This document shows, piece after piece, positions 13,255-42,770 of a DNA stretch of 61,723 nt. Origin of the DNA: an uncultured Vicinamibacterales bacterium (GTDB taxonomy: Bacteria; Acidobacteriota; Vicinamibacteria; Vicinamibacterales; JAKQTR01); contig CAZJRM010000002.1 of the NCBI GenBank assembly GCA_964547975.1, positions 1-61,723 of the forward strand. Reading direction: 5' to 3'. Every line of letters starts with the position of its first letter. Position 1 is the stretch's first letter. Below the pieces are notes generated by a model that was not told the DNA's origin, did not search any database, and saw only the letters and a program-made list of their open reading frames with translations. Made by a program: the position numbers and the translations under genes.

Positions 13255-13281
13255 TCCTCCCCGACTCCAGACGTGTCCCGC

Positions 13282-14754
13282 TCAGTTCGCCGCGACGGGT
13301 GCGCGACCGCGACCGAGGAAGCCCTTCACGAGGCCGACCAGTTCCATCAGCGTCGCCCGGTTGAACAGCAGCGCGCCGCCGAGGAACATCACGGCGCCAA
13401 CCGGAATCTCGATGAACAGCGCCGCCCGCGGAGGGACGGGCCCCATCATCGCCTCGAGCACCTGGACGCCAAGGACCGCCGCCACCATCGGCACGCAGGC
13501 GACCATCGCTCGCATGAAGGCCTGCAGGAACGGCGCCATGGCGGCCTTGTGTTGACGACGGAGCCCGAGCCACATGAACGTGAGATGTCCGAGGAACGCG
13601 ATGTCCACCGCGGCGCACGCCCACAGCGGCCCCAGGCGACCGATCACGAACAAGCCGCCCAGCAGGATGGCGAGGCGCGTCACGCTGGCGAGCATGACGT
13701 ACGGCGTCCGGCCTTCCGCCTTGTAGAACGCCCTGAACGTCCACCCGATCGGCAACACCGCGGCATGCAGGCTCAGCACGGCGAGCATCGGGCCGAGCAG
13801 CGCCCATTTCTCAGGAAAGAGCGCGGCCACCACCGTATGCGAGACGCTCGCGAGGCCGAACGCCAGCGGCATGACGACCAGCGCCATGGCCGACGCGGCC
13901 CGGACCAGCGCCTGGGCGCGGTGCCTGGGTTCGACCCGGGAGAACGAGGGAAACAGCACGTCGGCAATGTGTTCGGCCACGCCCAGCGTGGAGGTCTGCG
14001 ACAGGTTGTAGGCGAGGTTGTACGCGCCCATGACACCCGCGCCGTGGAACCGCGATACCAGCAGGTTGTCCCACCGGCTGGTGGCGAAGTCCATCATGTT
14101 CGCGCCCGCCAGAGGATAGCTGTAATTCACCATCCGCACGACGGTGTCCCAGGACAGCTTCACCGGCCGGATCCACCGGCGATCGGCCGCCGCGAGCAGC
14201 ACGATCATCACGAGCGCCGACCGGCCGAGGCCGCCGAATACCATCGCCATGGCTCCGTACTTGGACACGAAGCCCAGCGAGAGCGCCGCGTAGAGGAGTT
14301 CGCCGAAGCCCTTCGTCAGGGCGATCAGGCGGAAGCGCATGTCGCGCGCGAGGGACTTCTCGGGCACGATCCCGAGTACGTCGAACAACCCGGCCAGCGC
14401 GTAACCCGGCATGTACTGCGCCATCGCCGGTGCCCCGAGGAACGGGCCGAGCGGGTCGCGCAGGAGGAACACACCGAAGATCGCGGCCCAGCCGAGCACG
14501 ACGTGCAGGAGGGCCGCGTGAAACGCCACGCCGTCTTCCTTGTAGCCCCTCGCGATCAGGTACTGACCGAACTGGAGGTTCGAGAGCTGGACGGCCGTGC
14601 CGACACAGATGACTGCCGTCGACACCTCGCCGTAGTCGGTCGGGCTCATGAACCTCGCCAGCACCAGCGTGCTCACCAGGCCCACGACCCGGGCTCCGAG
14701 CCCGGTCACGGTATTCCACGCCACCGCTTTGGCTACCTGCGCGACACTCGACAC
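13282..14754 (-). CDS. Wzx-type polysaccharide flippase (PST/MOP family)
   Basis: 490 aa and polytopic. The N-terminus AKAVAWNTVTGLGARVVGLVSTLVLARFMSPTDYG is typical of PST transporters. Confidence 0.85.
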   Translation of the reverse strand: MSSVAQVAKAVAWNTVTGLGARVVGLVSTLVLARFMSPTDYGEVSTAVICVGTAVQLSNLQFGQYLIARGYKEDGVAFHAALLHVVLGWAAIFGVFLLRDPLGPFLGAPAMAQYMPGYALAGLFDVLGIVPEKSLARDMRFRLIALTKGFGELLYAALSLGFVSKYGAMAMVFGGLGRSALVMIVLLAAADRRWIRPVKLSWDTVVRMVNYSYPLAGANMMDFATSRWDNLLVSRFHGAGVMGAYNLAYNLSQTSTLGVAEHIADVLFPSFSRVEPRHRAQALVRAASAMALVVMPLAFGLASVSHTVVAALFPEKWALLGPMLAVLSLHAAVLPIGWTFRAFYKAEGRTPYVMLASVTRLAILLGGLFVIGRLGPLWACAAVDIAFLGHLTFMWLGLRRQHKAAMAPFLQAFMRAMVACVPMVAAVLGVQVLEAMMGPVPPRAALFIEIPVGAVMFLGGALLFNRATLMELVGLVKGFLGRGRAPVAAN

Positions 14755-14798
14755 GGAACTCCCCTCATCGGCGCACGTCTCGCCGGATCGAACGACTC

Positions 14799-15950
14799 TT
14801 ACTCGACCGCCAAGTGTCCGGCCTGGCCTCCGGCCACGCCGGACACGGGCGGTCTGGGATACCGATAGTCACGGAACGCGCCAGGGTTGCCGGGCTTCCC
14901 GTCTTCGGCCGCGTGGATGATGTTGACCATCTCGCGGGCCGTCACGTAGTGGAGCCGGTACCGTCGGCCGTCGTTGAAGGCCGCGCCAATCGCCCGATGG
15001 AACGCCTTCATGCCGGGCCCGAGGAGCATCTCGGCGTTCTTTTCCGGTGCCCCGTGGGTATGCACCTTCACGAAGACCCATTCCGGCCGTCCCTCGACGG
15101 TCACCCCCGCCGATACCCACTCGGCGAACCTCGCGAGGGTCGCCGGCGCCCCGCCGTCGAGGGCACCCGTCTCCAGGCGCGGGGCCAGCCCCCACTTCGC
15201 GTTGCGCCAGGACAGGCCCAGCGGCCCCTGGACCATCAACAGCGACTCGGCCGCCGGACGGCGTCCCACGCCCGCCCGCACGCCGCGATCGTGCGCCTTC
15301 GGACTCGGCGCCGTCGTCGAGGCGTAGTAGATCTGGTTGACCGTCCGTGTCTGCGCGGGAGACGGCGCCGCCGGATTGGTGAAATCGGCGTAGCACCCGG
15401 TGTCGGCCAGCACGGCCAGTTCACCGTTCACGCCGCATCGACGCCGGTCGGGCCGCGAGTTGTCGAGCGCCCAGTTCCCGTGGATGAACCCGTATCGGAG
15501 CCGGCCGGCCGCGTCACGCGACAGGAAGCCGTGCTGCGCGTGGAGCAGCGACGCGAAGTCCTTCAGGCTGGCCGCCAGGTTCCCGGGCGTGTCGTTGTCA
15601 TGATGAAGGTGGATTTCGACTTCGCCGAAACCGCCGCGGCAGATCTCGGCAAGCCGATCGAGGTACCCGGTCCGGTACTCTTCAATCGGGAAGAAAAACG
15701 TGTGCTGCGGATGTCGTCCGTCGGCGTCGACGAACTCGCGGGCCAGTGCCGGATACCTCCGGTGCCAGGCGTCGACGCGGGCCGCACCGATGGGCTCGGA
15801 GACCTTGCCGTGCAGCGGTTCGTAGTGGTCCGTGATGGCGAGCAGGATGTCGGTCACGCCACGAACGCGGGCGCGCGCCCTGGCGGCTCGGACGACAGAC
15901 CGGACGTAGTCGCTGAGCCAGATCTCGGCGTGGCGCGGGAGGGTCGGCAC
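14799..15950 (-). CDS. hypothetical protein, His-rich putative metal-dependent carbohydrate deacetylase/hydrolase-like
   Basis: 383-aa ORF in operon position between the priming transferase and the flippase. Motifs ITDHYEP, HLHHDND, IHGNWALD and VHTHG are present. No family was recognised with confidence. Confidence 0.6.
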   Translation of the reverse strand: MPTLPRHAEIWLSDYVRSVVRAARARARVRGVTDILLAITDHYEPLHGKVSEPIGAARVDAWHRRYPALAREFVDADGRHPQHTFFFPIEEYRTGYLDRLAEICRGGFGEVEIHLHHDNDTPGNLAASLKDFASLLHAQHGFLSRDAAGRLRYGFIHGNWALDNSRPDRRRCGVNGELAVLADTGCYADFTNPAAPSPAQTRTVNQIYYASTTAPSPKAHDRGVRAGVGRRPAAESLLMVQGPLGLSWRNAKWGLAPRLETGALDGGAPATLARFAEWVSAGVTVEGRPEWVFVKVHTHGAPEKNAEMLLGPGMKAFHRAIGAAFNDGRRYRLHYVTAREMVNIIHAAEDGKPGNPGAFRDYRYPRPPVSGVAGGQAGHLAVE

Positions 15951-15962
15951 GGGCGTTCCTCC

Positions 15963-17360
15963 CTACGATCCGGACCGCGTCAGCACGGTCTTGATCGTCT
16001 CGAAGATGATGTACAGATCCAGCGCCGCCGACATGTTCTTGATGTAGTAGAGATCGTACTGGAGTTTCTCGATGGTGTCCTCGACGCTGGCGCCGTACGC
16101 GTAGCGGACCTGCGCCCAGCCGGTCAGACCCGGCCTCACGACGTGGCGCTGGCCGTAATACGGAATCTGTGCCGTCAGGCCCGTCACGAATTCCGGACGC
16201 TCCGGCCTCGGGCCGACGAGACTCATGTCGCCGCGGAGGACGTTCCACAGCTGCGGGAGTTCGTCCAGGCGTGTGCGCCGGAGCACGGCCCCGACCCGGG
16301 TCACGCGCGGGTCCTTGCCCGGCGTCGCCCAGACGGCGCCGGTCTTCGCCTCGGCATCCACGCGCATCGAACGGAACTTGTAGATCGTGAAAACCCTGCC
16401 GCCCAGCCCGACACGCTGCTGGCTGTACAGCACCGGACCGGGCGACGACAGCCGGATCGCCAGCGCCGACAAGCCGATGAAGGGCGACAGCACCAGGAGC
16501 ATGAAGAAGCCGGCCGCGAGGTCCACGGCCCGCTTGACGCCCTTGAGCGCCGTGACCTGCTCGAAGCCGTCACTGAAGATGAGCCAGCTGGGCCGCAGGT
16601 TCTCGACGGCGATCTTGCCCGTGTACTGTTCGTAGACCGTCGGCAACTGGGCGAACGACACACCCGCCATGCGCATCGACAGCAGTTCGTCCATCGACAG
16701 CTTGCCGCGGGCATCCCGCAGGCTCACGACGACCCGGTCGACGTTGTCCCGCGCGACAATGGCGGGAATGTCCTTCACCGTGCCGATGACGCTCAGTCCG
16801 GCGAGGGGGACGCCCACCTGCGCCGGATCGGGATCGACGAAGCCGCAAATCGCCACGCCCAGGTCCGCCTGGCGCGCGAGCAGTTCTTCGGCCAGCCGGA
16901 CCGCCGCGGGGTTCGTCCCGACGATGAGCAGGCGTTCCTTGGGGCCCGCGTGCCCCGACAACCACGCGAACGCGTACCGCCAGCCGATGATCAGCCCGAC
17001 GATCAGGATGGCCGAGAGCACGAACACGCCGCGGCCGATGATCAGGGCACCGAACCAGTAGTAGAGGCCCGCGAGCACGAGGGAGGCGACGCCGAGCGCG
17101 TTGAGCGTCCGCACGAACAACTCGCGGTGGTCCGCCAGCCGGCGCAGGTCGTAGAGGTCGGCGTAGTACAGGGAGATCTGACAGACGGCCGCGATGACCA
17201 GGGCTTTCAGGAACCCCCGGTCCAGCCACATGACGTACTCGGCTTCATCACGGCCGAGCCGGATCCACGCCGCCAGCACGACGGCCCCGACGATGAGGAG
17301 CCCTTCGCACACGACGAGCGCGACGGTGCGCCACGTTGGACGAAGTGAGCGAGTAACCAT
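15963..17360 (-). CDS. polyprenyl-phosphate glycosyl-1-phosphate transferase (bacterial sugar transferase, EPS priming enzyme)
   Basis: N-terminal TM helices plus the C-terminal [26 protein letters not shown]...[22 protein letters not shown]. Confidence 0.9.
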
Positions 17361-17381
17361 CCCTGGTACACAACCGACGCG

Positions 17382-18344
17382 TCAGGATGCCTTCGGCGCC
17401 TTGCGGTGGTAGTAGCCGTAGTAGCTGCCGTACCCGGACGTGACCCGCTGGACACGGTTGAGCACGACACCCACGACCTTCGACGATTCGAGCGACGCGA
17501 CCGCACGCTGGATGTCCTGATACGCCGTCTTGGCCGCTTCGACCACGACGACGATCCCGTCGGCGAACTCCGAGACGAGACGGGCGTCGGACACCAGCCC
17601 GATCGGCGGCGTGTCGATGATCACCCAGTCGAAGTCCTCCCGCGCCTTCGCGAGCAGGTCCCGCAACCGTCCCGAGGTCAGCGCGCTCGTCGGATCGGCC
17701 AGGACGTGACCGCTCGGCAAGTACGTCAGGTTCGGCGAGATCTCCAGGACCGGCGACGAGGACACGGCCACGCCGGTCAGCGCCTCGCTCAGCCCGGCCC
17801 CGGCGTGGACGCCGAAAACGGAATGCAGCGAAGGGCGGCGGAGGTCCGCGTCGACGACCAGCACACGATGCTGGTACGAATCGCTCAGCGTGAGCGCCAG
17901 GTTCGTGGCCGTCAGGCTCTTGCCTTCGCCCGGCATCGCGCTCGTCACCACGACCACCTTCAGACCGCGCTCGGCCTGGGCGTAGTACAGCGTCGCGGCG
18001 AGTTTCCGGTACTGCTCCACGGCCACCGCCAGCGCCGGGTTGTCATCGGCGTCGGCTGACACCACCAGCTTCTCGCCGGCTGCCGTGGCGTGCACCCGGA
18101 ACCACTCCCCGATTCTCGTCGCGAAGGGAGCCGAGCGTTCGGGGCCGCGTGAGCGGCGATCCCCGCCCGCCTGCGGCTGAACGGCCACCACCGGCCGCTC
18201 CTCCTGCGCTTCGGCCGGCACGTCGAGCCTCCACGGCACCGAGAAGCCGGGTTGTCCGCCCCCGGTCGTCTGCTCGGCCTCCGGCGGGATGATCGGCGCA
18301 TGTCCATCGGACGCCCGTTGCAGGGCCTCGTGCAGGCGGCTCAT
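17382..18344 (-). CDS. BY-kinase-type tyrosine autokinase (P-loop ATPase of the EPS co-polymerase)
   Basis: Walker A MPGEGKS, A' VLVVDADLRRP, B VIIDTPP and the C-terminal Tyr cluster GYGSYYGYYH are present. The ATG at 18344 overlaps the upstream stop (ATGA). The longer ORF to 18413 was rejected. Confidence 0.85.
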   Translation of the reverse strand: MSRLHEALQRASDGHAPIIPPEAEQTTGGGQPGFSVPWRLDVPAEAQEERPVVAVQPQAGGDRRSRGPERSAPFATRIGEWFRVHATAAGEKLVVSADADDNPALAVAVEQYRKLAATLYYAQAERGLKVVVVTSAMPGEGKSLTATNLALTLSDSYQHRVLVVDADLRRPSLHSVFGVHAGAGLSEALTGVAVSSSPVLEISPNLTYLPSGHVLADPTSALTSGRLRDLLAKAREDFDWVIIDTPPIGLVSDARLVSEFADGIVVVVEAAKTAYQDIQRAVASLESSKVVGVVLNRVQRVTSGYGSYYGYYHRKAPKAS

Positions 18345-19279
18345 CGGGGTACCTCGCTCGTTGCCGGACGCGATCCGCGTTCCATCGTCTCTCCAAGTCC
18401 TTCGAAATCCCACGGGTGCTCGTCTTTGGCCGAGGCCGGTCGACGAGCCGCCGCGCCGCGGCCGGGTTCCTCGAGGCGGAAATCCGCCGCCACCTCTTCG
18501 ACGGTCCCCTGGCCGATGGGCCGTTCCCCACCGGCAAACCCGCTGAGCATCGCGTTGTCGCAGACGACGCTGATGGTCCTCGGAATCCCCTGAGACCGTT
18601 TGTGCACGGCCAGGATGGCCTCGCGCGAGAAGATCGTCACGGGGTCCCCGCCGGCCTTGCGGATTCGGCCGGCGATGTACGCCGCCGTTTCCTCGACGAC
18701 GAACGGCCCGAGGTCCGCGCGGAGGGCCACGCGCTGCTTCAGCTGGCGCAGGTCCTTGTTATCCAGCTTGTCCGCCAGTTCGGGTTGGCCGGCCATCACG
18801 ACGGGCAGCAGCTTGTCGGTGGCGGTCTCGAGATTCGCCAGCAGCCGGATCTCCTCGAGCAGTTCGAACGAGAGGCTCTGCGCTTCGTCGATCACGAGGG
18901 CGATCCGCTCGCCGTTCTGATTTCGCTCGACCAGCAGGCGCTCGAAACTCAACAGGAACCGCGCCTTCGAGCCGGCGGTCTCGCGCGGCATGCCGAATCG
19001 CGCCGCCAGGAACTCGTAGAACTCCCCGCGCGTCAATGCCGGGTTGTTCAGATACACGCAGCGCGAGCCGTCCTTGGCGAGCGACTCGATTACCGATCGG
19101 ACGACGGTCGTCTTCCCGGTCCCCGCCTCACCGACGAGCAGCGTGATGCCCTTGCGGCCGCTGATCCCGTAATGCACGACGCTCAGCGCCTCGAGGTGAC
19201 GCCTCGACAGGTACATGAACCTCGGATTGGGCGTCAGGTCGAATGGCCGCTCGGCCAGTCCGTAGAACTTCTCGTACAT
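18341..19279 (-). CDS. ExeA/GspA-like AAA ATPase, PEP-CTERM-locus secretion ATPase type
   Basis: MYEKFYGLAERPFDLTPNPRFMY at the N-terminus, Walker A GEAGTGKT and Walker B LVIDEAQ. Confidence 0.85.
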   Translation of the reverse strand: MYEKFYGLAERPFDLTPNPRFMYLSRRHLEALSVVHYGISGRKGITLLVGEAGTGKTTVVRSVIESLAKDGSRCVYLNNPALTRGEFYEFLAARFGMPRETAGSKARFLLSFERLLVERNQNGERIALVIDEAQSLSFELLEEIRLLANLETATDKLLPVVMAGQPELADKLDNKDLRQLKQRVALRADLGPFVVEETAAYIAGRIRKAGGDPVTIFSREAILAVHKRSQGIPRTISVVCDNAMLSGFAGGERPIGQGTVEEVAADFRLEEPGRGAAARRPASAKDEHPWDFEGLGETMERGSRPATSEVPR

Positions 19280-19283
19280 CGGA

Positions 19284-20897
19284 TCACCGCAACCAGCGCG
19301 GGATGCTGACCATGCCCGCTTTCACGGCCACCGCAGCCGCCACCACCATGGCGAGCGCCAGCAAGACACTTCCAGCCGCGGCGTACACCCGCCGCCTCCG
19401 TCGCTTGAGGCGGTCGGCCGTCGTCTCGATGAGCGGAATGGCAGCCAGCATGGGCACGGCCACGACCAGAGCGAGTTCGGACTCGTTGCGGACGCCTCGG
19501 TCCCGGTACTCCAGCAGGAAGGCCACGCCGAACCCGAATGCCAGACCGCCAAAGATCCCGATCACGTTGATGAGCGGCCGATTGGGGCTGAATGGCGACT
19601 CGGGCAGTCGCGCGCGGTCGAGGGTCTTGAACTGCTCGCCAATGCCCCGGTCTTCGAGGGCCGCCGCGACCTTCGAGTCTTCCTGCTTGGCGAGCAGGTT
19701 CGTGTAGAGCGTCTGCAGGGTCTGGTAATCACGGGTCAGCGCCGTGAACTCCGCCTCAATCGAAGGCGTCGCAGCCACGCGCCGTTCGAACTGCGACATC
19801 TGTTCCCGCAGGCGGCGCTCCTCGGCCTGCTTCGAGGCGATCTGCGACTCGACGGCGGCCAGTTCCTGTCGCGCTTCCTGGAGCCGGCGCACCACGCTGG
19901 CCTCTTCCGGGCGCAGCGGGCGTCCGGTAGGTACTGGAGCCCCGCCGGCGGCGCCTCGCGCCTCGTCCGCCCGGAGTTTGGTTTCCAGGTCACGGATGAC
20001 CCGGCGCGCGAATGCCACGTCCGGGTGGCCGGGTTTCAGCCGCAGTTCGAGGAGCTTGAGGTTCTCTCGCGCCGATTCCAGCTGCTCGGCCGTCGTCGCT
20101 CCCGGGACCACCCCGGCGGCCGCATCGGGAGACGCGGACTGCGCCGCGGCCCTGACCGCCTTGGCTTCGGCTTCGAGTTCGCCGACGGTCCGTTCGAGGA
20201 AAAGCCGGCGATCGCGGTCGCGGTTCACCGAGTCGGCGAGGGCCTGTGCCTGCATCTGAACGTTGTGCAGGACCTGCAGGTTGGAATCCCGTTCCGACGG
20301 AAGTTCACCGGCATGCATGCGCTGGAACTCCGCGACCTTCCGTTCCTGTTCGCTCAGGCGCTGTCGCGCGTCCTCGAGTTGCGACTGAAGAAAGTCGGTG
20401 GTCCGCTCGGCGAGCACCGACCGATCCTGCAGGCTCTGGTTGGTGAAGAGCGTGGCCAGCCGATCAGCCGTCTCCATCGCCTTCCGCGGCGAATCGGAGA
20501 CGTAGGACACACGGAAGGCGTCACCCCGCACGATGTCCACGGAGACGTCGCGACGCATCTTCTCGATGACGTCCTCCATCGGCAAACGCGAAACTTCGTC
20601 CGGATACAGTTTCAGGTCGCGAATGACCTGTTCGAGCGTCGTGCGGGTGGTGATCCGCTGCTGGATGGAACGCAGTCGGTCTTCAATCCGCGCTGTCACC
20701 GTCGACCGGACGTAACTCTCGGGTACGCGCTGGGGCTCCACGAGAATCAGCGTCTCGGACCGGTACCGGTCCGGGAGCCGGAGCGCGAACACCGCCGTGG
20801 CGACCGCGATAGCCACCGCCGGAACCAGGATGGCCCACTTGCGGCGCCAGACGATCCCGAGCAGGTCTTCAGGACTGTATTTCTTCCCAGGCAGCAC
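19284..20897 (-). CDS. polysaccharide chain-length determinant (Wzz/GumC-like, PEP-CTERM-locus type)
   Basis: N-terminal TM helix plus the Wzz region (PDRYRSETLILVEPQ), a long coiled-coil middle and a C-terminal TM helix. Confidence 0.85.
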   Translation of the reverse strand: MLPGKKYSPEDLLGIVWRRKWAILVPAVAIAVATAVFALRLPDRYRSETLILVEPQRVPESYVRSTVTARIEDRLRSIQQRITTRTTLEQVIRDLKLYPDEVSRLPMEDVIEKMRRDVSVDIVRGDAFRVSYVSDSPRKAMETADRLATLFTNQSLQDRSVLAERTTDFLQSQLEDARQRLSEQERKVAEFQRMHAGELPSERDSNLQVLHNVQMQAQALADSVNRDRDRRLFLERTVGELEAEAKAVRAAAQSASPDAAAGVVPGATTAEQLESARENLKLLELRLKPGHPDVAFARRVIRDLETKLRADEARGAAGGAPVPTGRPLRPEEASVVRRLQEARQELAAVESQIASKQAEERRLREQMSQFERRVAATPSIEAEFTALTRDYQTLQTLYTNLLAKQEDSKVAAALEDRGIGEQFKTLDRARLPESPFSPNRPLINVIGIFGGLAFGFGVAFLLEYRDRGVRNESELALVVAVPMLAAIPLIETTADRLKRRRRRVYAAAGSVLLALAMVVAAAVAVKAGMVSIPRWLR

Positions 20898-20905
20898 GTC
20901 TCACC

Positions 20906-22264
20906 TCACTGGCTCGCCGACGAACCCCGGACGGCCGGCGGCCGGCCGAATCTGGCGATCGGAAGCCAGAACGACACGCCCACCTGCACGCGGTGGCGCT
21001 CCATGGTCAAGGGCATCCCTTCGGGCACGTTGTACCCGGGCGGGAACCGATAGTTCACGTAGACGTATCCGGCATCCAGCGCCGCGTTCGCGATGAGCGC
21101 CACTCGCACGTGGGCGGACCCCGTCAGGAACCGCACGGAGCGGCTGCCCGACGATTGGCCGTCCGAGTAGAAGCCCGACAACCCCGCCGAGACGCGGCGC
21201 CCGAGCGCCCCGCCGAACGACAGGTTCGCGGTGTCCGCCCAGACCGGCTCGGCCAGCACTTCGTACGCACGCATCTGCCGGCCGTAGGAGGCACTGGCGG
21301 ACCACGTCCCGACGATCGAGCGATGCACCCTCACGTTCCAGTGCGGTCGCAGGGACTGGTCCCGGCTGTTGTCGATCCGGGACACACCGGCGGACGCCGA
21401 CACGCTCGTCGTCCGGCCGCGCCGGGTGCGCGGAGCGTAGGTCACACCGAGTTCGCCGCCGTGCCCCGTCGTCGGCTCGCGACTGACGCTGCCCGTGTAG
21501 TCGATGTAGAAGAACGAATAGCCGAGGGAGGAATGGAACGATCGCGACCATTCCCGATCGATCGACACCGACGCGGCATCGCTGCTCGAACCGCGGTCCT
21601 GCTCGGTGAAGAGCCCGCCGGTGCGGGTATAAGACACGGCTCCAGAGGTGAACCGTCCCAGTTCGCGGCGGAGGTTGGCCCCGGCGGTCACGCGGTTGAC
21701 CGGTTCCTGGGCCGCGGCGAAGTCGAGGGCCGACCCGAGGCCGCCTGGCGAGGTCGCCGCGTCGTACATGATCGTGAAGTACGGCAGGTGCGAGTAGCTG
21801 GCGCTCGTCATGAACATGGTTCGCCGCCCCGTCACGCCCATGTTGACGCTGGCGGTATACGCCCCGCCCACCGGCACGTCTTCGAGGTCCGGGTAGTACG
21901 GGACGGTCGTGCCGACACTGGCGCCGAACTGCACGACGCCGCCTCGCCTCGCGTACGAGAGCGTCACGCCGCCGGTGTACGCGTCGCGGTACGCCCGATC
22001 GGCCGTGGTCACGGCGGCGCTGCTGGCGAACGGGGCGTTGTCGAGCGCGGCTTCTCCGTTCAGGGAGAGGTCGATGCTGTGCAGGCTCTGCCGGCTCATC
22101 CCGTCTGGTCCGAACAACGGCCGGAACGCCCGGCCCACCCGCTCGGGCGGAGGCTCGGTGCCTTGCGCAGCGGGCGGCTGCGACTGCGCCCACACGGGGA
22201 CCGCCCCGAGCCACAGGCCCGCCACGACACCGAGCGCACGACGTCTGAACACCACAAGTCCCAT
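20906..22264 (-). CDS. putative outer-membrane beta-barrel protein, PEP-CTERM-system-associated type
   Basis: Signal peptide (AGLWLGAVPVWAQ), alternating-pattern Ser/Thr/Tyr/Gly-rich sequence, and position between the exporter and the chain-length determinant. Confidence 0.6.
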   Translation of the reverse strand: MGLVVFRRRALGVVAGLWLGAVPVWAQSQPPAAQGTEPPPERVGRAFRPLFGPDGMSRQSLHSIDLSLNGEAALDNAPFASSAAVTTADRAYRDAYTGGVTLSYARRGGVVQFGASVGTTVPYYPDLEDVPVGGAYTASVNMGVTGRRTMFMTSASYSHLPYFTIMYDAATSPGGLGSALDFAAAQEPVNRVTAGANLRRELGRFTSGAVSYTRTGGLFTEQDRGSSSDAASVSIDREWSRSFHSSLGYSFFYIDYTGSVSREPTTGHGGELGVTYAPRTRRGRTTSVSASAGVSRIDNSRDQSLRPHWNVRVHRSIVGTWSASASYGRQMRAYEVLAEPVWADTANLSFGGALGRRVSAGLSGFYSDGQSSGSRSVRFLTGSAHVRVALIANAALDAGYVYVNYRFPPGYNVPEGMPLTMERHRVQVGVSFWLPIARFGRPPAVRGSSASQ

Positions 22265-22270
22265 GGCCTG

Positions 22271-22975
22271 TTACGGCACGATCACCGTGTCACCGGGGCG
22301 CAGGTCGATGTTGCTCGCGAGGTTCTTGAGCTTCTGAACCTGCGAATAATCGAACTTGAACGCCTGGCGCTGTCCGGCCCGTCCCACCGGCTCCCGCACG
22401 ATGACGATGTCCTTCTCCTTGGCGTACTCGGTCAGCCCCCCCGCCAGCGCGATCAACTGCAGCACGGACATCCGGTTCCCGAGCGGATACGCGCCCGGCC
22501 GGGTCACCTGGCCCGTTATGAATACTTTTCGGCTGTTGATCTGCTTGACGATAATGGTCACGCTCGGATCTTCGATGAGCCGGCTCGCCTCCTGCGTGAC
22601 CTTGTCGCGCAGTTGGTCGGGCGTGAGCCCCGCCGCCTGGATGTCGTTCAGGAACTGCAGCGTGATCATGCCGTCCGGCCTCACGGTGACCTCGGCCGAC
22701 ATGTCCTTCTCCCGCCGGAAGAGCACGATCAGGACATCGTCCGGGCCAATCACATAATCGGGTGGCGGCGGCGTAACCTGAGCCGGCGGCGTCACGACGG
22801 CCGGCGGTTTGGCGGCAGTCGCGGGCGGACGCTGCGCGGTGCCTTGCGTCCTGGGCGGCGCGGCTTGAGGCGCCTGGAGGAGACCGGCGGCCAGCAGATC
22901 GCCGCACAGGAGCCCCGTGAGCACAACCGTCCCGAGCAGGGTAGAGATACGTCGTGTTGTCATGGTGACCATCAC
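22271..22975 (-). CDS. Wza-like polysaccharide export protein (Poly_export + SLBB)
   Basis: YVIGPDDVLIV...VRPDGMITLQFLNDIQAAGLTPDQL...VFITGQVTRPGAYPL. The start may be 22963 (MTTRRIS). Confidence 0.85.
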   Translation of the reverse strand: MMVTMTTRRISTLLGTVVLTGLLCGDLLAAGLLQAPQAAPPRTQGTAQRPPATAAKPPAVVTPPAQVTPPPPDYVIGPDDVLIVLFRREKDMSAEVTVRPDGMITLQFLNDIQAAGLTPDQLRDKVTQEASRLIEDPSVTIIVKQINSRKVFITGQVTRPGAYPLGNRMSVLQLIALAGGLTEYAKEKDIVIVREPVGRAGQRQAFKFDYSQVQKLKNLASNIDLRPGDTVIVP

Positions 22976-23010: not shown

Positions 23011-24081
23011 TTACCGATACTCCCTGAACGGCAGCTGGCAGTCGTGCTTCCTCAGGAAATTGAGGAATCGTTTGTAATCCGCCGGAGCCATGTTGAAGAG
23101 CCGTGTCACGATCTTGTAGTTGCCCTTGGACAGCTCGAGCCCCTTGGCGACGAGTTCCCGCAGGTTGCCCCGCGTGATTTCCCGCTGCATGTAGAGCGGG
23201 TACACGGCGGTCCAGAACGACTCGTGCTGCTCGATCATCTTCTTCAGCAGGTCGTCGGCCACCGTCCGGCGGCGCTCGCGCTTCGGCCGGACGCTGATGC
23301 TCGCCGGCGTGCGCACCTCGATGGGCAGATCGTCGACGCCGATTTCCGGCCCGCATCCCGAGACGAGCAGACGTTCGATCACGTTGGCCAGCTGCCGGAC
23401 GTTGCCGGGCCACGAGTAGTCCATCAACGCCGCGTAGGCGGCCGGTGACACGGTCGGGCGGTTGCCGTTGGTCCGCCCCATGGCGTCGAAGAAGTGCTCG
23501 ACGAGCAGGGGGATATCGTCACGGCGGTCGCGCAGCGGCAGCACGTGAATATGGACGACGTTGATGCGATAGAAGAGGTCTTCGCGAAACAGCCCCTGGC
23601 TGACCATCTCGGGCAGGTTGCGGTTGGTCGCCGCCACCACGCGGACGTCGACGTGTTTGCCGAGGCGGTCGGCGCCGATCTTCTGCAACTCGCCCGTCTC
23701 GAGGAACCGCAACAACATGCCCTGCAGCCGCGGGCTCATCTCGCCGATCTCGTCGAGGAAAATGCTCCCGTCGTGGGCCTTCTCGAGCATGCCCGGCTTG
23801 TCGCGGTACGCGCCCGTGAAGCTGCCCTTCATGTGCCCGAAGAGCTCCGACTCCAGCAGCGTCTCGGGCAGGCCTGCGCAGTTGACCGTCACGAACGACT
23901 TCGACGCCCTCGCACTGTTTGCGTGGATACCGAGCGCCACGAGCTCCTTGCCCGTGCCGCTCTCGCCCGTGATCAGCACTTTGGCGTCGGACATGGCCGC
24001 GCGCTGGATCTCGTGCTGCAACGCGAGCATGCCGGGGCTCCGCCCCACGAGCTGCGCCGCGATATTCCTGCTCACACTCAC
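23011..24081 (-). CDS. sigma-54-dependent transcriptional activator (bEBP) lacking any N-terminal sensor/receiver domain
   Basis: Walker A GESGTGKE by residue ~40, GSFTGA loop and Walker B FLDEIGEM. The C-terminal tail is ...GNYKIVTRLFNMAPADYKRFLNFLRKHDC. The GTG start overlaps the PilZ stop (GTGA). Confidence 0.9.
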   Translation of the reverse strand: MSVSRNIAAQLVGRSPGMLALQHEIQRAAMSDAKVLITGESGTGKELVALGIHANSARASKSFVTVNCAGLPETLLESELFGHMKGSFTGAYRDKPGMLEKAHDGSIFLDEIGEMSPRLQGMLLRFLETGELQKIGADRLGKHVDVRVVAATNRNLPEMVSQGLFREDLFYRINVVHIHVLPLRDRRDDIPLLVEHFFDAMGRTNGNRPTVSPAAYAALMDYSWPGNVRQLANVIERLLVSGCGPEIGVDDLPIEVRTPASISVRPKRERRRTVADDLLKKMIEQHESFWTAVYPLYMQREITRGNLRELVAKGLELSKGNYKIVTRLFNMAPADYKRFLNFLRKHDCQLPFREYR

Positions 24082-24413
24082 CGGCTACTTCCCTTCAGCA
24101 ACTCATCGATCGCAATCGCCCCGAGCGGCGACACGGAGGTGAAGAACGCGCCGACGCGGTATCCACCGGCATCCTTGTCCCAGTGGTCGGCGGCGTGACG
24201 CACGTGCAACTGCGCTTCGAGCGGGGCGCCGCCGAGGCGGGCCACGACCCGCGGGGTGGCACCGACACGCATTCGATCCGGGCATGCCATCAGCACGCCG
24301 CCCGAACTCAGGTCGAGCAGTCGCACCGCCATCGACACGGGGCGCATGGCCAGCGCGGCCCCGTTGACGGCCACCCTCGGATGACGACGCCGTTCGGTGA
24401 ACTCTCGATCCAC
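24078..24413 (-). CDS. stand-alone PilZ-domain protein (canonical c-di-GMP-binding motifs)
   Basis: RRHPR (RxxxR) and DLSSGG (DxSxxG) at the expected spacing. 111 aa. Confidence 0.8.
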   Translation of the reverse strand: MDREFTERRRHPRVAVNGAALAMRPVSMAVRLLDLSSGGVLMACPDRMRVGATPRVVARLGGAPLEAQLHVRHAADHWDKDAGGYRVGAFFTSVSPLGAIAIDELLKGSSR

Positions 24414-24414
24414 G

Positions 24415-24768
24415 TCAGACCTCTAGGATATCGGCCGGAGCCGACGGTTCGTTCACCAGTTCATCGACGAGTTTCGTCGCCTGGGAATCCAGGTCGAGGA
24501 ACTCGAGGCCGACGAGGTATCTGCCGGTCCCGGCGACGGCGTCGGCGGGAGTGGAATGCCTGACGCCGGCCCTGATGACGACGGCGTCGCAGCCGCGGAG
24601 GAGGCGGAGCGCCAGGACGGTGCCGACGGCCATGGGGGTCCTCGACTCGGTCAGCATGCCCTCGGGCGCGATGTTGTGCACGCGCATGGGTTCGAGCATC
24701 TCGACCGAGCCCCAGAGGCCCCCGAGCACCTCGAACCTGGGCGCGACACGACGGTCAGTGCGTTCCAT
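24415..24768 (-). CDS. stand-alone PilZ-like protein (second motif degenerate)
   Basis: RVAPR (RxxxR) and NIAPEG (NxAxxG, Ser replaced). ATG 24768 is preceded by GAAGGAG. The TTG-initiated extension to 24876 was rejected because it runs into the promoter-like element. Confidence 0.6.
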   Translation of the reverse strand: MERTDRRVAPRFEVLGGLWGSVEMLEPMRVHNIAPEGMLTESRTPMAVGTVLALRLLRGCDAVVIRAGVRHSTPADAVAGTGRYLVGLEFLDLDSQATKLVDELVNEPSAPADILEV

Positions 24769-24875
24769 CCCGACTCCTTCTACGGACCCGATGACATTCG
24801 GCGACAGCGGCACGGGCGGCGCCCCGGGCGGTTGGACCGCAGGCAGAGCACGGCTCTCGCACCTGGCTCCGAACA

Positions 24876-24891
24876 AGCAAAACCTAGTCCA
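24876..24891 (-). promoter_or_regulatory. sigma-54 (-24/-12) promoter candidate for the PilZ-PilZ-bEBP-EPS operon
   Basis: The minus strand reads TGGACT-AGGTT-TTGCT with correct GG-N10-GC spacing, about 108 nt upstream of ATG 24768. Confidence 0.45.
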
Positions 24892-25071
24892 GAACCACTA
24901 CCGCCGAGCGGGAAGCACCTGAGCAGCTGACGTCAAGAATCTGGCCGAAAAACGCGCCAACTTTGCTGAAGTCTTCCCTTCGTCTGAAGCGGGCCTGCAT
25001 CTAGTCTACCACAAGGAAGACTAATGTCCACCTTGTTGACCCTAACCCGGAATTCCGCCCGCCTTGCCGAC

Positions 25072-26220
25072 CTACCTCGGCGGCTCCCGATATACGTGAA
25101 ACGGCACCTCGCACCCGAACGTCCGAAGGAAATTCAGGAAACGTTTGTAATCCCGCTCCGGCATGTTGAACAGCTGCACGACGCCTCGATAACTGCCCTG
25201 CGTCCGTTCCAGCCCGAGGCGCACGACCTCCCTCACGTCGTGTCGCGTCAAGTCTCTCGCCATGAACGGCGCCCGGACCGCCGCCCAGAATGGCTCGCCA
25301 TGGCCCACCATGCGCTCGAACAGGACTTCGTGTGAGGGGGGTCGCGGGGGCAGCCCCGTGACCGCGGGCACCGGGGTCGGCGCCGCACGGAACTGGGACG
25401 GCAGGTCATCAATCGTAATCACCCCGCCCTGCGCGCGAAGCACGGCGCCTTCGACGGCGTTCCGCAATTCCCGCGTGTTGCCCGGCCAGCGATGGGCCAT
25501 CAATCGCTCGAGGACGCCCGGGCCGACGGACAACGCCGGCGACCCCGCCTTCGCGGCAAACAGGCGCAGGAAGTAGTCGAGCAACGCCGGAATATCCTCG
25601 AGTCGCTCGCGCAGGGGCGGCACCTCGATGTGCAGCACGTTCAGCCGGAAGAAGAGGTCCTCCCGGAACTCGCCCGCCGCGATCCGCTGCTCGACGTCCC
25701 GGTTCGTCGCCGCCAGAATTCGGACGTCGAAGCGGCGGCCAGGCTGATCCGCGCCCACCCGGTGCGTCTCCCCCGTTTCGAGGAACCGCAGCAGGAGGGC
25801 CTGCATCCGCAACGACATCTCGCACACTTCATCCATGAAGAGCGTGCTGCCGTCAGCGGTTTCGATGAGCCCGGGACGGTCGCGCAGCGCCCCGGTGAAA
25901 CTGCCCCGCTGGTGCCCGAACAACTCCGATTCGAGCAACGAATCGGGGAACCCCGCGCAGTTGATCGCCAGCATCCGGTGCCGACGCCGCGCGCTGCACG
26001 CGTGAATCGCGTGCGCCACGACTTCTTTGCCCGCCCCGCTCTCTCCGGTGATCAGGACCTTCGAGTCGCACCGACCAGCCACCTCGACTTCGTGCCGCAG
26101 ACGCGCCACGGGCAGGCTCGTCCCGATCAGACTGATCGGCGGTTCGGCATCAGCCGAATACACGACGCGCGAACGCTCACGGCCGAACGGGAACGGTACT
26201 CGTTCCATCGGGACTGACAT
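25072..26220 (-). CDS. sigma-54-dependent transcriptional activator (bEBP), paralog, also without a sensor/receiver domain
   Basis: GESGAGKE by residue ~60, GSFTGA and FMDEVCEM. The C-terminal tail ...GSYRGVVQLFNMPERDYKRFLNFLRTFGC parallels that of the 23011-24081 protein. Confidence 0.9.
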   Translation of the reverse strand: MSVPMERVPFPFGRERSRVVYSADAEPPISLIGTSLPVARLRHEVEVAGRCDSKVLITGESGAGKEVVAHAIHACSARRRHRMLAINCAGFPDSLLESELFGHQRGSFTGALRDRPGLIETADGSTLFMDEVCEMSLRMQALLLRFLETGETHRVGADQPGRRFDVRILAATNRDVEQRIAAGEFREDLFFRLNVLHIEVPPLRERLEDIPALLDYFLRLFAAKAGSPALSVGPGVLERLMAHRWPGNTRELRNAVEGAVLRAQGGVITIDDLPSQFRAAPTPVPAVTGLPPRPPSHEVLFERMVGHGEPFWAAVRAPFMARDLTRHDVREVVRLGLERTQGSYRGVVQLFNMPERDYKRFLNFLRTFGCEVPFHVYREPPR

Positions 26221-26343
26221 GGCGGCAAGTCTACCTGACAGAGGTTATCGGGGTCTGGCCCGCAAAACTTTGATTCCCGAATTGTAGAACCTAAGTGCGT
26301 CCGCGCGCAGACTTTTTTCTGCCGAGACCACGGAGTCAGACCA

Positions 26344-26431
26344 GGCTCTCGGGTTTCGGCTCTCGGCTCTCGACATACATGGCGCCGGCCTCTAGCCTCT
26401 AGCCTCTAGCCTCTAGCCTCTAGCCTCTAGC
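26344..26431. repeat. heptanucleotide tandem arrays: (GGCTCTC)-like x4, then (GCCTCTA)x6
   Basis: Read directly. GGCTCTC GGGTTTC GGCTCTC GGCTCTC lies at 26344-26371. Six perfect GCCTCTA units lie at 26388-26429 (+GC), ending 19 nt before the dsbD ATG. Confidence 0.85.
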
Positions 26432-29778: not shown

Positions 29779-30951
29779 ATGGCCCACGACTTCGATCGGC
29801 TCATCGACCGGCGGCGTTCGGACAGCACGAAATGGAACTACTTCGATGACGACGTGCTGCCCCTGTGGACGGCCGACATGGACTTCCGGGTGGCGGAACC
29901 GATCGTCGACGCGCTTCGCGCCAGGGTCGACCACGGGATCTTCGGTTACGCCCGCGAGCCGCAGGCGCTGCGGGAGGTGATCGCGGCGCGGATGGCCGAA
30001 CGGTACGGGTGGGCAATCTCACCGGACTGGGTCGTGTTCCAGACGGGCGTGCTGAACGGGTTCCGCAAGGTCTGCGAAGTGGCCGCGGGCCCCGGCGACG
30101 GGATCCTGATTCAACCGCCGGTTTACCCGCCAATCGTGGGGACACCGGCCGCCAACGGATCGTGGCACCAGGAATCGCCGCTCGTGAGGCGGTCGGACGG
30201 ACGGTACGGCATCGACTTCGACGGCTTCGAGGCCGCCATCACGCCCGAGACGCGCGTCTTCATCCTCTGCAATCCGCACAACCCCGTCGGCCGGGCGTTC
30301 ACGCCAGCCGAGCTCGAGCGGCTCGCCACCATCTGCCTGCGGCACGACGTCCTGATCTGCTCGGACGAGATCCACTGCGATCTCGTGTTTTCCGGAAGCC
30401 GCCACACCCCCATCGCGTCGATGGCGCCGGAAATCGCCAGGCGCTCGGTCACGCTCATGGCGCCAAGCAAGACCTACAACATCCCCGGGCTGCACTGCTC
30501 GTTCGCGATCGTGCCGGATCCGGCCCTGCGGGCCAGGATCGCGAAACCCGGGTCCGGCGACTTCGCGGATGTGAACCTGATGGGCCTGGTGGCAACGCTG
30601 GCGGCGTACCGGGACGGGCAGCCGTGGCTCGACGAGGTCCTGCCGTACCTCGAGGGGAACCGGGACTTCGTCGTTGATTTCGTCAGGAAGGAGATGCCCG
30701 GCGTTCGCGTGTGGGCTCCCGAAGCCACCTACCTGGCGTGGCTGGACTGCCGCGACAGCGGGATTTGCGGGGATCCATACGAGTTCTTCCTCGAACACGG
30801 GAGGGTGGGGCTTTCTGGCGGGCCGGCATTCGGCACGGGCGGGACGGGGTTCGTCCGCGTCAATTTCGGGTGTGCGCGCGCGACGCTGGCGGAGGCGCTG
30901 CGCCGGATGCAGGGGGCCCTCATCGGGAGGGCGAAGCACCAGGAAGCGTAG
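29779..30951 (+). CDS. MalY/PatB-type cystathionine beta-lyase (class I aminotransferase fold C-S lyase)
   Basis: MAHDFDRLIDRRRSDSTKWNYF at the N-terminus and SKTYNIPGL (PLP Lys). In-frame ATGs at 29758/29770 are alternatives. Confidence 0.85.
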   Translation: MAHDFDRLIDRRRSDSTKWNYFDDDVLPLWTADMDFRVAEPIVDALRARVDHGIFGYAREPQALREVIAARMAERYGWAISPDWVVFQTGVLNGFRKVCEVAAGPGDGILIQPPVYPPIVGTPAANGSWHQESPLVRRSDGRYGIDFDGFEAAITPETRVFILCNPHNPVGRAFTPAELERLATICLRHDVLICSDEIHCDLVFSGSRHTPIASMAPEIARRSVTLMAPSKTYNIPGLHCSFAIVPDPALRARIAKPGSGDFADVNLMGLVATLAAYRDGQPWLDEVLPYLEGNRDFVVDFVRKEMPGVRVWAPEATYLAWLDCRDSGICGDPYEFFLEHGRVGLSGGPAFGTGGTGFVRVNFGCARATLAEALRRMQGALIGRAKHQEA

Positions 30952-31097: not shown

Positions 31098-31113
31098 TGG
31101 CCCGAAGCTTGCC
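31098..31113 (+). promoter_or_regulatory. sigma-54 (-24/-12) promoter candidate
   Basis: TGGCCC-GAAGC-TTGCC with correct spacing, 73 nt upstream of ATG 31186. Confidence 0.6.
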
Positions 31114-31185
31114 TCTGCGAATGGATAGTTCCCCGACCAGCTCGAACGATAACGAGTGGTCATTCCTCAGAGGTTGGAGATGTCG

Positions 31186-31821
31186 ATGCGCTTCGTTTCT
31201 TCCCTGTCAGCCCTGGTGCTGACGGTCTTCTTCGCAGGCTCGGCGGCCGCCGCGCCAGTGACCACCTACTGCCCCGGCTCAGGCCCGGTTCCGGTCGACC
31301 CCTTCACTCGCTCGTTCTGGGTCACGCTCGACGGGGCCGCAGCCACGTGCCACATGTACGGCACGGGCAATCTCAACGCGAGCACGGCCGCCCAGGACGC
31401 GATGATCGCGTCCGGCTGGACCGCGCTCGACAAAGACGAGGCTCCTGACGCGGCCTTCACCCTCGATTCGTGGCTGACGATCACGGGACTCGGTGCCACG
31501 AGCGGGACCTTCACGCTGGCTTCGGCGGCCTGGGCCGCCGGCGGGTACAAGGACCTGGCCATCGGCATCAAGGTCGGAAACAGGGACAACCCGTCGTGGG
31601 CCGTCTTCCTCCTGCCCAGCGCATTGTTCACGGGGTCGAGTCTGACCGGCCAGTGGGGCACGGGCCCGGCACAGGGTGGAGGGCTGTCCCATCTCAACCT
31701 GTACGGCAAGGGGACGCCCGACGATCCGCCTCCGCCTCCGGTTCCCGAGCCCGCGTCGATGGTGCTTCTCGGCACCGGCCTGATCGGCGCGGCGGCCGCC
31801 CGGCGGCGCCGGCGCCAGTAA
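31186..31821 (+). CDS. PEP-CTERM sorting-domain protein
   Basis: ATG 31186 lies 6 nt after GGAG. Signal peptide MRFVSSLSALVLTVFFAGSAAAA. C-terminus PPPPPVPEPASMVLLGTGLIGAAAARRRRRQ. Confidence 0.9.
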   Translation: MRFVSSLSALVLTVFFAGSAAAAPVTTYCPGSGPVPVDPFTRSFWVTLDGAAATCHMYGTGNLNASTAAQDAMIASGWTALDKDEAPDAAFTLDSWLTITGLGATSGTFTLASAAWAAGGYKDLAIGIKVGNRDNPSWAVFLLPSALFTGSSLTGQWGTGPAQGGGLSHLNLYGKGTPDDPPPPPVPEPASMVLLGTGLIGAAAARRRRRQ

Positions 31822-33974: not shown

Positions 33975-34050
33975 GGGCCGCTAGCTCAACTGGCAGAGCA
34001 GCAGACTCTTAATCTGCGGGTTCACGGTTCGATTCCGTGGCGGCTCACCA
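33975..34050 (+). tRNA. tRNA-Lys (anticodon CTT), CCA encoded
   Basis: Cloverleaf folded by hand. Acceptor stem GGGCCGC/GCGGCTC (one G-U), D arm GCTC..GAGC, anticodon arm GCAGA-CTCTTAA-TCTGC and T arm CACGG-TTCGATT-CCGTG, followed by A-CCA. Confidence 0.95.
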
Positions 34051-42634: not shown

Positions 42635-42709
42635 GTGCTCCCCCGAGGTGCAAATCACACTGCGGCCCCGCCGACCCCCACGGCTGCGGTTGCCGCAATC
42701 GAACCATTT

Positions 42710-42725
42710 TGCAATTAGTGATCCA
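42710..42725 (-). promoter_or_regulatory. sigma-54 (-24/-12) promoter candidate
   Basis: The minus strand reads TGGATC-ACTAA-TTGCA with correct spacing, 76 nt upstream of ATG 42634. Confidence 0.5.
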
Positions 42726-42770
42726 TGCACCTTGCTGCATTCGGCGCTGATATTCAGATCTGTGGCGGCT

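Follow-up and report, generated by a model that had tools for sequence, protein, structure and literature searches.

Two PilZ genes and a sensor-less sigma-54 activator form a conserved cassette at a PEP-CTERM-type exopolysaccharide locus of Vicinamibacterales

What controls a sigma-54 activator that has no sensor domain of its own, and what are two genes for PilZ proteins doing immediately in front of it? The question is raised by the window analysed here, a stretch of 61,723 nucleotides (nt) from an uncultured Vicinamibacterales bacterium (GCA_964547975.1, contig CAZJRM010000002.1), whose minus strand carries a module of four genes: bEBP2 (25072–26220), PilZ-A (24415–24768), PilZ-B (24078–24413) and bEBP1 (23011–24081). 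bEBP1 and bEBP2 are sensor-less sigma-54 activators of the bacterial enhancer-binding protein (bEBP) type, and PilZ-A, PilZ-B and bEBP1 form a cassette that heads an exopolysaccharide (EPS) operon. This cassette suggests an undescribed way for cyclic di-GMP (c-di-GMP) to switch on sigma-54 transcription: judging from gene content and order, the PilZ pair would sense c-di-GMP and control bEBP1 in trans, in the manner of PspA and PspF, a proposal that we regard as evenly poised between right and wrong.

Both activators begin almost directly with the AAA+ core. In bEBP1 (356 amino acids (aa)) the core starts at residue 11 and Walker A (GESGTGK) occupies residues 39–45; bEBP2 (382 aa) carries about 30 residues ahead of its core and has Walker A at residues 59–65. 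The Walker motifs read GESGTGKE and DEIGE in bEBP1 and GESGAGKE and DEVCE in bEBP2, and Walker A, Walker B and the GSFTGA loop are complete in both. Across the family, GSFTGA is invariant in all 68 open reading frames (ORFs) that are 5′-complete with a recognisable Walker A. Sigma54_activat (PF00158, cut-off 20.2 bits) matches bEBP1 at 220.8 bits (1.2e-65) and bEBP2 at 206.4 bits (3.1e-61), AAA_lid_14 is the only other Pfam domain in the two proteins, and Pfam found no Response_reg, GAF, PAS or HTH_8 in either. Each ORF is already maximal, beginning at the first start codon after an in-frame stop, so that an in-frame upstream sensor domain is impossible without a frameshift. Homologs of bEBP1 measure 339, 354 and 355 aa and those of bEBP2 370–420 aa, the latter likewise free of any sensor domain in Pfam. 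A preliminary description of this DNA had held that neither activator has room for a receiver or other sensor, and the Pfam results, the maximal ORFs and the stable homolog lengths bear this out; the gene positions, Walker A motifs, GSFTGA loops, shared tails, GTGA overlap and 1-nt and 229-nt gaps that it reported are all present in the sequence. The 229 nt separate bEBP2 from the divergent dsbD, and GTGA is the 4-nt overlap of the bEBP1 GTG start with the PilZ-B stop.

NCBIfam holds no specific model for any of the four module proteins. The PrsR model TIGR02915 (cut-off 502.6 bits) scores bEBP1 at 267.3 and bEBP2 at 251.6 bits, about half its cut-off, and is matched only over model positions 139–412, the AAA+ region; on these scores and the lack of a receiver domain, we rejected PrsR as an identity for either protein. 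The PspF model TIGR02974 (cut-off 443.55 bits) aligns with bEBP1 end to end (model positions 1–336), and both bEBP1 (254.4 bits) and bEBP2 (224.5 bits) score under its cut-off; at 254 bits bEBP1 lies so far beneath it that PspF orthology was also rejected. By TIGR02915 and PF00158, then, the two proteins are Sigma54_activat members and not PrsR, as first proposed. The accompanying claim that the module replaces the usual two-component control of PEP-CTERM-type loci was overstated, because PrsK/PrsR/PrsT (TIGR02916/02915/02917) are defined as a proteobacterial feature (PMC1569441), so that Acidobacteria have no usual system to replace; PrsK and PrsR were not found within the 61.7-kb window. The locus resembles the Prs arrangement in placing sigma-54 promoters about 70 nt before the start codons of PEP-CTERM genes and a bEBP in or near an EPS locus. 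It differs in that PrsR has a receiver domain, a Fis-type helix–turn–helix (HTH) and a paired histidine kinase, and the window holds neither such a regulator nor such a kinase.

Beyond the motor, bEBP1 has a C-terminal helical domain of 94 aa (23011–23292, minus strand), and bEBP2 carries the same domain family. The preliminary description spoke here of an unusual C-terminal tail: the ending ...DYKRFLNFLR(K/T) is indeed shared by the two activators, but the tail is not a short one, being a whole conserved 94-aa domain. No other part of bEBP1 is as conserved as these 94 residues, which are 76–85% identical across orthologs whose overall identity is 69–79%. The isolated C-termini of the bEBPs gave no Pfam match, HTH_8 (PF02954) included, even at E ≤ 10, and a profile search of the PDB with the bEBP1 domain found no homolog among solved structures. 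Its AlphaFold2 (AF2) model has five helices with a predicted local distance difference test (pLDDT) score of 86.7; Foldseek found nothing below E = 5 for this model, and the weak matches consisted of HTH and winged-HTH DNA-binding domains only. Inspected by eye, the three final helices of the model would align with a Fis-type HTH, an assignment that we set aside as unsupported by Pfam, the PDB profile search and Foldseek. The domain probably binds DNA. An AAA+ motor and this novel helical domain make up the whole of bEBP1, a sigma-54 activator. The domain is present in about 1,000 clusters at 50% identity. Among its distant relatives (P0216, P0228, P0136), one, a protein of 454 aa, has a partial GAF-like N-terminus and not a PilZ domain, and some have lost the GAFTGA loop; the latter may be sigma-54-independent, as VpsR is.

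The two proteins encoded in front of bEBP1 are both of the PilZ type. PilZ-B (111 aa) is a canonical stand-alone PilZ protein with the motifs RRRHPR and DLSSGG, and it scores 24.1 bits against PF07238 (cut-off 22.5 bits); the nearest solved sequences are, weakly, the PilZ domains of Alg44 and MapZ. Among 65 PilZ-B orthologs, RRxxxR is kept in 63, the Asp in 60, the Ser in 61 and the Gly in all 65, every one above 92%. PilZ-A (117 aa) is a stand-alone PilZ protein with RRVAPR, of the RRxxxR form, and NIAPEG, in which Ala replaces the motif Ser. The window copy reaches 21.9 bits against PF07238, just under the cut-off, and all 19 tested orthologs match the family (best 4.8e-9); hhalign relates PilZ-A to PilZ-B with 98.6% probability. 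In the AF2 model of PilZ-A the pLDDT is 73, and 76–92 in the β-barrel region, and its top 16 Foldseek matches are all PilZ domains (Alg44, BcsA, MrkH, YcgR, PP4397), with probabilities of 0.99–1.00, template modelling (TM) scores of 0.45–0.57 and modest E-values of 0.01–0.1. We accept PilZ-A as a PilZ-fold paralog of PilZ-B, and the initial reading of both small ORFs as PilZ holds on the profile search, hhalign, the orthologs and the AF2/Foldseek comparison, with the PilZ-B motifs conserved. RRxxxR is kept in 62 of 65 PilZ-A orthologs, and at the motif Ser position 34 of them have Ser, 20 Gly and 10 Ala. The maximal PilZ-A ORF begins at a TTG at 24876; the ATG at 24768 is preceded by a GAAGGAG ribosome-binding site and is most likely the start. 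In two loci, L039 and L076, PilZ-A and PilZ-B are fused in frame as one polypeptide. The pair would act as a single two-barrel unit, like the xPilZ–PilZ proteins YcgR and MrkH. No c-di-GMP riboswitch was found in the window, where the sole Rfam match is a tRNA.

The linkage of the PilZ genes to the activator is conserved. A profile of the bEBP1 C-terminal 94 residues, scanned against one genome per species, gave at least 534 relatives, and the best 80, nearly all from Vicinamibacterales or Acidobacteriota metagenome-assembled genomes, entered the locus analysis; 77 loci (species genomes) had enough upstream DNA, 61 of the loci had both flanks and 58 had full flanks for counting paralogs. The bEBP1 homologs are annotated as Vicinamibacterales, phylum Acidobacteriota. 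PilZ genes lie upstream of the bEBP1 ortholog in 69 of the 77 loci, as two ORFs in 64, fused in 2 and frameshifted in 3. The PilZ–PilZ–bEBP arrangement, which the preliminary description had noticed in this one locus, is thus conserved far beyond chance, in about 90% of the 77 species genomes. A gap of 1 nt separates PilZ-A from PilZ-B in the window, and PilZ-B of the closest relatives runs 4–11 nt into bEBP1. An extra PilZ gene lies upstream of a bEBP2-like gene in L083, and a PilZ-like ORF upstream of another bEBP paralog class in 6 loci. With both flanks in hand, PilZ is upstream in 57 of 61 loci, 38 with and 19 without Wza, Wzz, AAA_22 or tyrosine-kinase (TyrK) genes downstream, and only 3 of the 61 have EPS genes with the bEBP and no PilZ. 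From these counts, the PilZ pair tracks the activator more faithfully than the export genes do, and the persistence of the linkage where Wza/Wzz export genes are not downstream favours a functional link between PilZ and bEBP. In another subclade (70% identity), a protein of 428–432 aa is encoded directly upstream of PilZ-A (L002, 7986–9272, and the P0120 contig) and gives a weak, degenerate GGDEF match of 22.7 bits against a cut-off of 23.8; a degenerate GGDEF-like gene at this place would be a link to c-di-GMP.

The same counts bear on the main rival explanation of the PilZ genes, namely that their products are post-translational c-di-GMP switches on the polysaccharide machinery (Wzz/tyrosine kinase/glycosyltransferase or export), in the manner of Alg44 or BcsA. 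bEBP1 would then be constitutively active and set by its expression level, for instance through a cascade from bEBP2, and the adjacency would reflect a shared EPS regulon. The trio does open an EPS operon, both here and in 38 of the 61 loci, Alg44 and BcsA contain the solved PilZ domains that come nearest to PilZ-A and PilZ-B in sequence and fold, loci without downstream export genes still lie near sugar-nucleotide genes, and eight bEBP1 orthologs lack an adjacent PilZ. We nevertheless consider this explanation rather unlikely: 19 loci keep PilZ–PilZ–bEBP1 without the export genes while 3 show the reverse, the gene order is fixed, the start/stop overlap is with the bEBP and not with an EPS enzyme, PilZ-like ORFs recur beside other paralogs of the bEBP family, and a sensor-less bEBP requires some control.

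A sigma-54-type promoter, TGGACTAGGTTTTGCT, is predicted at 24876–24891 on the minus strand, 107 nt upstream of the PilZ-A ATG. The strict motif TGG-N8-TTGCW has five exact matches in the window versus 1.37 expected, and none of 100 shuffles of the window reached five; two of the five precede PEP-CTERM genes and the one at 24876–24891 precedes PilZ-A. A loose consensus (2 mismatches) showed no enrichment in the window (21 versus 18 expected). TGG-N8-TTGC recurs at the equivalent position upstream of PilZ-A in 8 of the 8 closest relatives. Farther upstream, 105–140 nt from the −24 element, lies a conserved block (24997–25032, minus strand) that holds a pair of dyad-like sites, GTGGAC-ATTA-GTC and GTAGAC-TAGA-TGC, at a spacing of 22 bp. 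In an intergenic alignment of 8 species with a mean column identity of 41%, conserved columns cluster only at this block (consensus GTAGAC-N4-GTC / TCAGAC-TTYT-GRC), at the −24/−12 element and at the ribosome-binding site and ATG; the block of L085 contains a perfect palindrome. The 8-mer GACTAGAT occurs only twice in the window, in the dyad block and 126–133 nt upstream of the PEP-CTERM promoter at 3651. The block may be read as either a candidate enhancer (upstream activating sequence, UAS) or a sigma-70-type −35/−10 pair.

That second possibility is one of the points for treating PilZ-A and PilZ-B as a split, MrkH-like c-di-GMP-dependent DNA-binding factor or co-activator acting at the upstream block, with or without a bEBP. 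MrkH, a two-barrel (PilZN2–PilZ) activator, is among the top structural matches, and in two species PilZ-A and PilZ-B form one fused gene. Yet similarity to MrkH does not extend beyond the PilZ fold (11–15% identity), and the tight coupling to the bEBP and the conserved −24/−12 element point to enhancer-dependent control, which leaves this idea very improbable in our view.

A further question is whether bEBP1 acts alone. bEBP2 is 48% identical to it, has the same architecture and C-terminal domain and lies 1 kb away, and the preliminary description entertained a heteromeric pair like HrpR/HrpS of Pseudomonas syringae. In its strict form this would make bEBP1 and bEBP2 an obligate hetero-hexamer with the PilZ pair in the role of HrpV. 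The likeness consists in paralogous sensor-less bEBPs encoded close by and a trans-acting regulator; the order bEBP2–PilZ-A–PilZ-B–bEBP1 recurs in L006/L083, L009, L084 and L085 (5 genomes), and 21 of the 58 full-flank loci have extra sensor-less paralogs at most 10 kb away, to either side. But those five genomes all belong to the closest subclade, and elsewhere 0–3 paralogs are found. The gap of about 300 nt between bEBP2 and PilZ-A contains a promoter, making bEBP2 a separate transcription unit, 37 of the 58 loci have no second paralog nearby, and where paralogs are present their number (1–3), position and strand vary. With Walker A/B and GSFTGA complete in both proteins, neither looks degenerate. 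The difference from hrpR and hrpS is plain: those genes are adjacent, co-transcribed and strictly co-dependent, whereas here a promoter and two PilZ genes intervene and the second paralog is mostly missing or elsewhere. We therefore do not retain the HrpR/HrpS comparison as a model for the pair, and judge the obligate hetero-hexamer improbable. Probably, bEBP2 would instead act at the same or related enhancers, as part of a cascade or as a parallel input.

Several observations concern bEBP2-like genes and the DNA around bEBP2. Loci L022, L026, L027, L031, L034, L042 and L045 hold as many as four bEBP genes in 20 kb: three encode sensor-less paralogs that share the C-terminal domain, and one, encoded on the other strand, is a bEBP that matches the query bEBPs no further than the AAA+ region; these clusters point to a large lineage-specific expansion of the activator family. 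Between dsbD and bEBP2 in the window are two tandem heptamer arrays, GGCTCTC repeated 4.1 times (26344–26372) and a perfect GCCTCTA array of 6.3 copies (26388–26431), which could be regulator sites or a slippage-prone tract. About 90 nt ahead of the bEBP2 start is a palindrome, GCAGA-AAAAAG-TCTGC (26309–26320), that fits the AGAC-WWWW-GTC dyad of the PilZ-operon block with one mismatch; a terminator scan flagged the adjacent stem at 26295–26309, reading the A/T-rich stretch of the palindrome as its T-tail. By this resemblance, bEBP2 may be under the same DNA-binding specificity as the PilZ operon.

c-di-GMP might also reach the activators without any PilZ protein. In FleQ, FlrA, VpsR and Nla24/EpsI, which regulate EPS and flagella, c-di-GMP governs a polysaccharide regulator of the bEBP type, and their AAA+ cores are close homologs of those studied here; the bEBPs could accordingly bind c-di-GMP directly through AAA+, with the PilZ genes as unrelated passengers. 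Direct c-di-GMP binding by EPS-controlling bEBPs is well established in the literature, and the closest homologs of solved structure include AAA+ domains of the FleQ family (E 1e-64). Against this, an alignment to 6jdi_A (named 'Nitrogen assimilation regulatory protein' in the PDB and recognised by its sequence as the FleQ AAA+ domain) has five FleQ contacts replaced (R144→A, R185→L, N186→G, E330→H and R334→A). Four of the five, R144, R185, E330 and R334, are described contacts of FleQ with c-di-GMP (PMC10723142). FleQ-type regulators bind c-di-GMP themselves and have N-terminal REC-like domains (FleQ acting also with FleN), whereas bEBP1 has neither the FleQ binding residues nor an N-terminal domain and has separate PilZ receptors encoded alongside; that the PilZ genes have been conserved together with their binding motifs speaks for their being functional. 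FleQ-type sensing by the bEBP was rejected as unlikely on the missing contact residues, and direct binding with passenger PilZ genes seems to us scarcely probable at all.

The genes downstream of the cassette identify the kind of locus that it heads. From 12058 to 22975 on the minus strand, with gaps of at most 44 nt and in the same operon as PilZ–PilZ–bEBP1 (12 genes in all), follow genes for a Wza-like export protein, an unknown protein of 452 aa, a Wzz/GNVR chain-length protein, an AAA_22 ATPase, a tyrosine autokinase, a TIGR03013 priming glycosyltransferase, an unknown protein of 383 aa, a flippase and an SGNH esterase; 38 of 61 loci show this gene order downstream of the bEBP1 ortholog. 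TIGR03013, the glycosyltransferase model of the XrtA/PEP-CTERM system, is matched at 470 bits against a cut-off of 393, and TIGR03007 (Wzz/GNVR, 267 versus 279 bits), TIGR03018 and TIGR03027 fall just under theirs. This is an XrtA/PEP-CTERM-type EPS locus, as the initial assignment had it, marked by the TIGR03013 match and by three PEP-CTERM genes with sigma-54 promoters.

All three PEP-CTERM genes of the window have a −24/−12 element 63–75 nt upstream; in Proteobacteria the mean distance between sigma-54 promoter and PEP-CTERM start is 71 nt (Haft 2006, PMC1569441). The first gene (3730–4443, plus strand; PF07589 29.9 bits, cut-off 20.7; C-terminus VPEPGSMLLLGTGLLGLAKAARRRR) has the predicted promoter TGGCAGACCGTTTGCT at 3651–3666, 63 nt upstream of its ATG. 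The second (31180–31821, plus strand, C-terminal motif VPEPASMVLLGTGLIGAAAARRRRRQ) has a sigma-54-like promoter, TGGCCCGAAGCTTGCC, at 31098–31113, which fits the strict motif except for the last base, 66 nt upstream. The third (41918–42634, minus strand, ATG at 42634, C-terminal motif VPEPASLLLLGSGLAGLAVRRRRR) has the predicted promoter TGGATCACTAATTGCA at 42710–42725, 75 nt upstream. The second and third were assigned by motif, from VPEP-TM-RRRR termini. Neither the 45 called genes nor the overlapping ORF at 18341–19279 included an exosortase gene, 44 of them being scanned by Pfam/NCBIfam and those at 31156–31821 and 41918–42826 recognised as PEP-CTERM genes by motif only; an exosortase may be encoded elsewhere in the genome. 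Upstream of the first PEP-CTERM promoter is a perfect 14-bp palindrome, CCGTGATTTCACGG (3615–3628), whose end lies 23 nt before the −24 element; it may be a site for an additional regulator.

How, then, would the cassette work? In PspF, HrpR/S and other domain-less bEBPs, activity is the default state, and a co-regulated partner restrains it. In Escherichia coli phage shock, PspF consists of an AAA+ core and a DNA-binding domain without an N-terminal sensor, as bEBP1 probably does, and its small trans partner is encoded behind an activator-driven sigma-54 promoter, the layout proposed here. The differences are that the partner here is a PilZ pair with c-di-GMP as the presumed signal, where phage shock has PspA and membrane stress, that the C-terminal domain is not a recognisable HTH_8 and that the target is an EPS/PEP-CTERM regulon. 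On the proposal that we favour, the PilZ unit would sense c-di-GMP, contact bEBP1 protein-to-protein in trans, and restrain or help the activator depending on c-di-GMP. Given the default activity of PspF and HrpR/S and their restraint by a partner, the most likely logic would be that the apo-PilZ pair inhibits the bEBP1 ATPase or hexamer assembly and that c-di-GMP relieves the inhibition. Freed bEBP1 would activate sigma-54 transcription of its own operon (PilZ, bEBP1 and EPS genes) and of the PEP-CTERM genes, and the sigma-54 promoter ahead of the whole cassette and the EPS genes would provide feedback.

A number of results weigh against this proposal. The link between PilZ and bEBP is a prediction from gene order, and 8 of the 77 bEBP1 orthologs have no upstream PilZ, so the activator can exist without adjacent PilZ genes. 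No PilZ–bEBP fusion was found among 28 PilZ-B homologs, nor among the C-terminal-domain relatives, a list made up mostly of metagenomic fragments. The 19 loci without downstream export genes may still sit among sugar or EPS genes, and the PilZ-A motif Ser is lost in the window copy and in about half of the orthologs. The strict sigma-54 motif is found upstream of PilZ-A in only 19 of 69 loci (about 3 expected), and we take the predicted PilZ-A promoter to be real in the closest subclade and not universal. A sigma-70 scan reads the upstream block as a TGGACA-16-TAGACT promoter, and a k-mer search (k ≥ 11) found no UAS motif common to the four sigma-54 promoters of the window. Outside the window, a strict sigma-54 match was present at only 1 of 10 PEP-CTERM candidates detected by regular expression; as predicted from these motifs, the link between PEP-CTERM genes and sigma-54 appears solid in the window and is not generalised. 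The window contains neither rpoN nor genes for an exosortase or diguanylate cyclases.

In its fullest form, the proposal would make the PilZ heterodimer a c-di-GMP-dependent anti-activator or co-activator of a domain-less bEBP with an unrecognised DNA-binding domain, the first case of PilZ control over sigma-54 transcription and a Vicinamibacterales-wide master switch for PEP-CTERM and EPS genes; we hold this version to be possible and somewhat short of probable. Small PilZ proteins that relay c-di-GMP by binding a partner are known from MapZ–CheR1, Xanthomonas PilZ–FimX–PilB, YcgR and MrkH, and the combination of a divergent with a canonical barrel in PilZ-A/PilZ-B mirrors the xPilZ–PilZ proteins, here usually as two polypeptides. 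None of the described PilZ targets is a sigma-54 activator. The PilB–PilZ structure (PDB 7lkm), itself among the Foldseek matches of PilZ-A, is a precedent for a stand-alone PilZ protein bound to a hexameric ATPase. In the open literature we found c-di-GMP-binding bEBPs and PilZ adaptors for other targets, and none in which PilZ controls a sigma-54 activator, which agrees with the initial view that this wiring matches no described system. What is known is the trans-regulated sensor-less bEBP and the control of EPS by c-di-GMP; their combination, as predicted here, appears new.

Some features of other loci and of the rest of the window may be recorded. At a distance of a few kb ahead of the cassette, L001 (6666–8465) and L085 (3918–5723) encode tetratricopeptide-repeat (TPR) proteins of about 600 aa, reminiscent of PrsT, the TPR protein of the proteobacterial Prs system; no TPR gene of that kind was seen in the window. 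A tRNA-Lys(CTT) at 33975–34050 was called by both ARAGORN and Rfam. An ARAGORN call of tRNA-SeC at 18703–18797 lies inside the AAA_22 gene without Rfam support and is probably a false positive. At 29800–30950 (plus strand) the gene map is unreliable: a caller based on third-codon-position GC (GC3) picked two short minus-strand ORFs (30123–30728) with odd codon-position GC, and the plus strand near 30950 ends in an apparent aminotransferase-like C-terminus.

To our knowledge, c-di-GMP reaches sigma-54 activators only by direct binding (FleQ, FlrA, VpsR), and domain-less activators are gated only by partners of the PspA or HrpV type. A PilZ-gated activator, if true, would unite both paradigms and add a new class of PilZ output. 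It would also provide a first testable model of PEP-CTERM/exosortase regulation outside Proteobacteria. With no more than two PilZ genes, one activator and one promoter, the cassette is compact and could be rebuilt in E. coli. The C-terminal domain, more conserved than the AAA+ motor and without a Pfam family or solved structure, merits structural and DNA-binding studies in its own right. Vicinamibacterales rank with the most abundant bacteria of soil and with those that have been studied least, and their EPS and aggregation are of importance for soil structure and carbon; if the proposal is true, this form of control would reach hundreds of soil species, with multiple paralogous PilZ–bEBP sets per genome.

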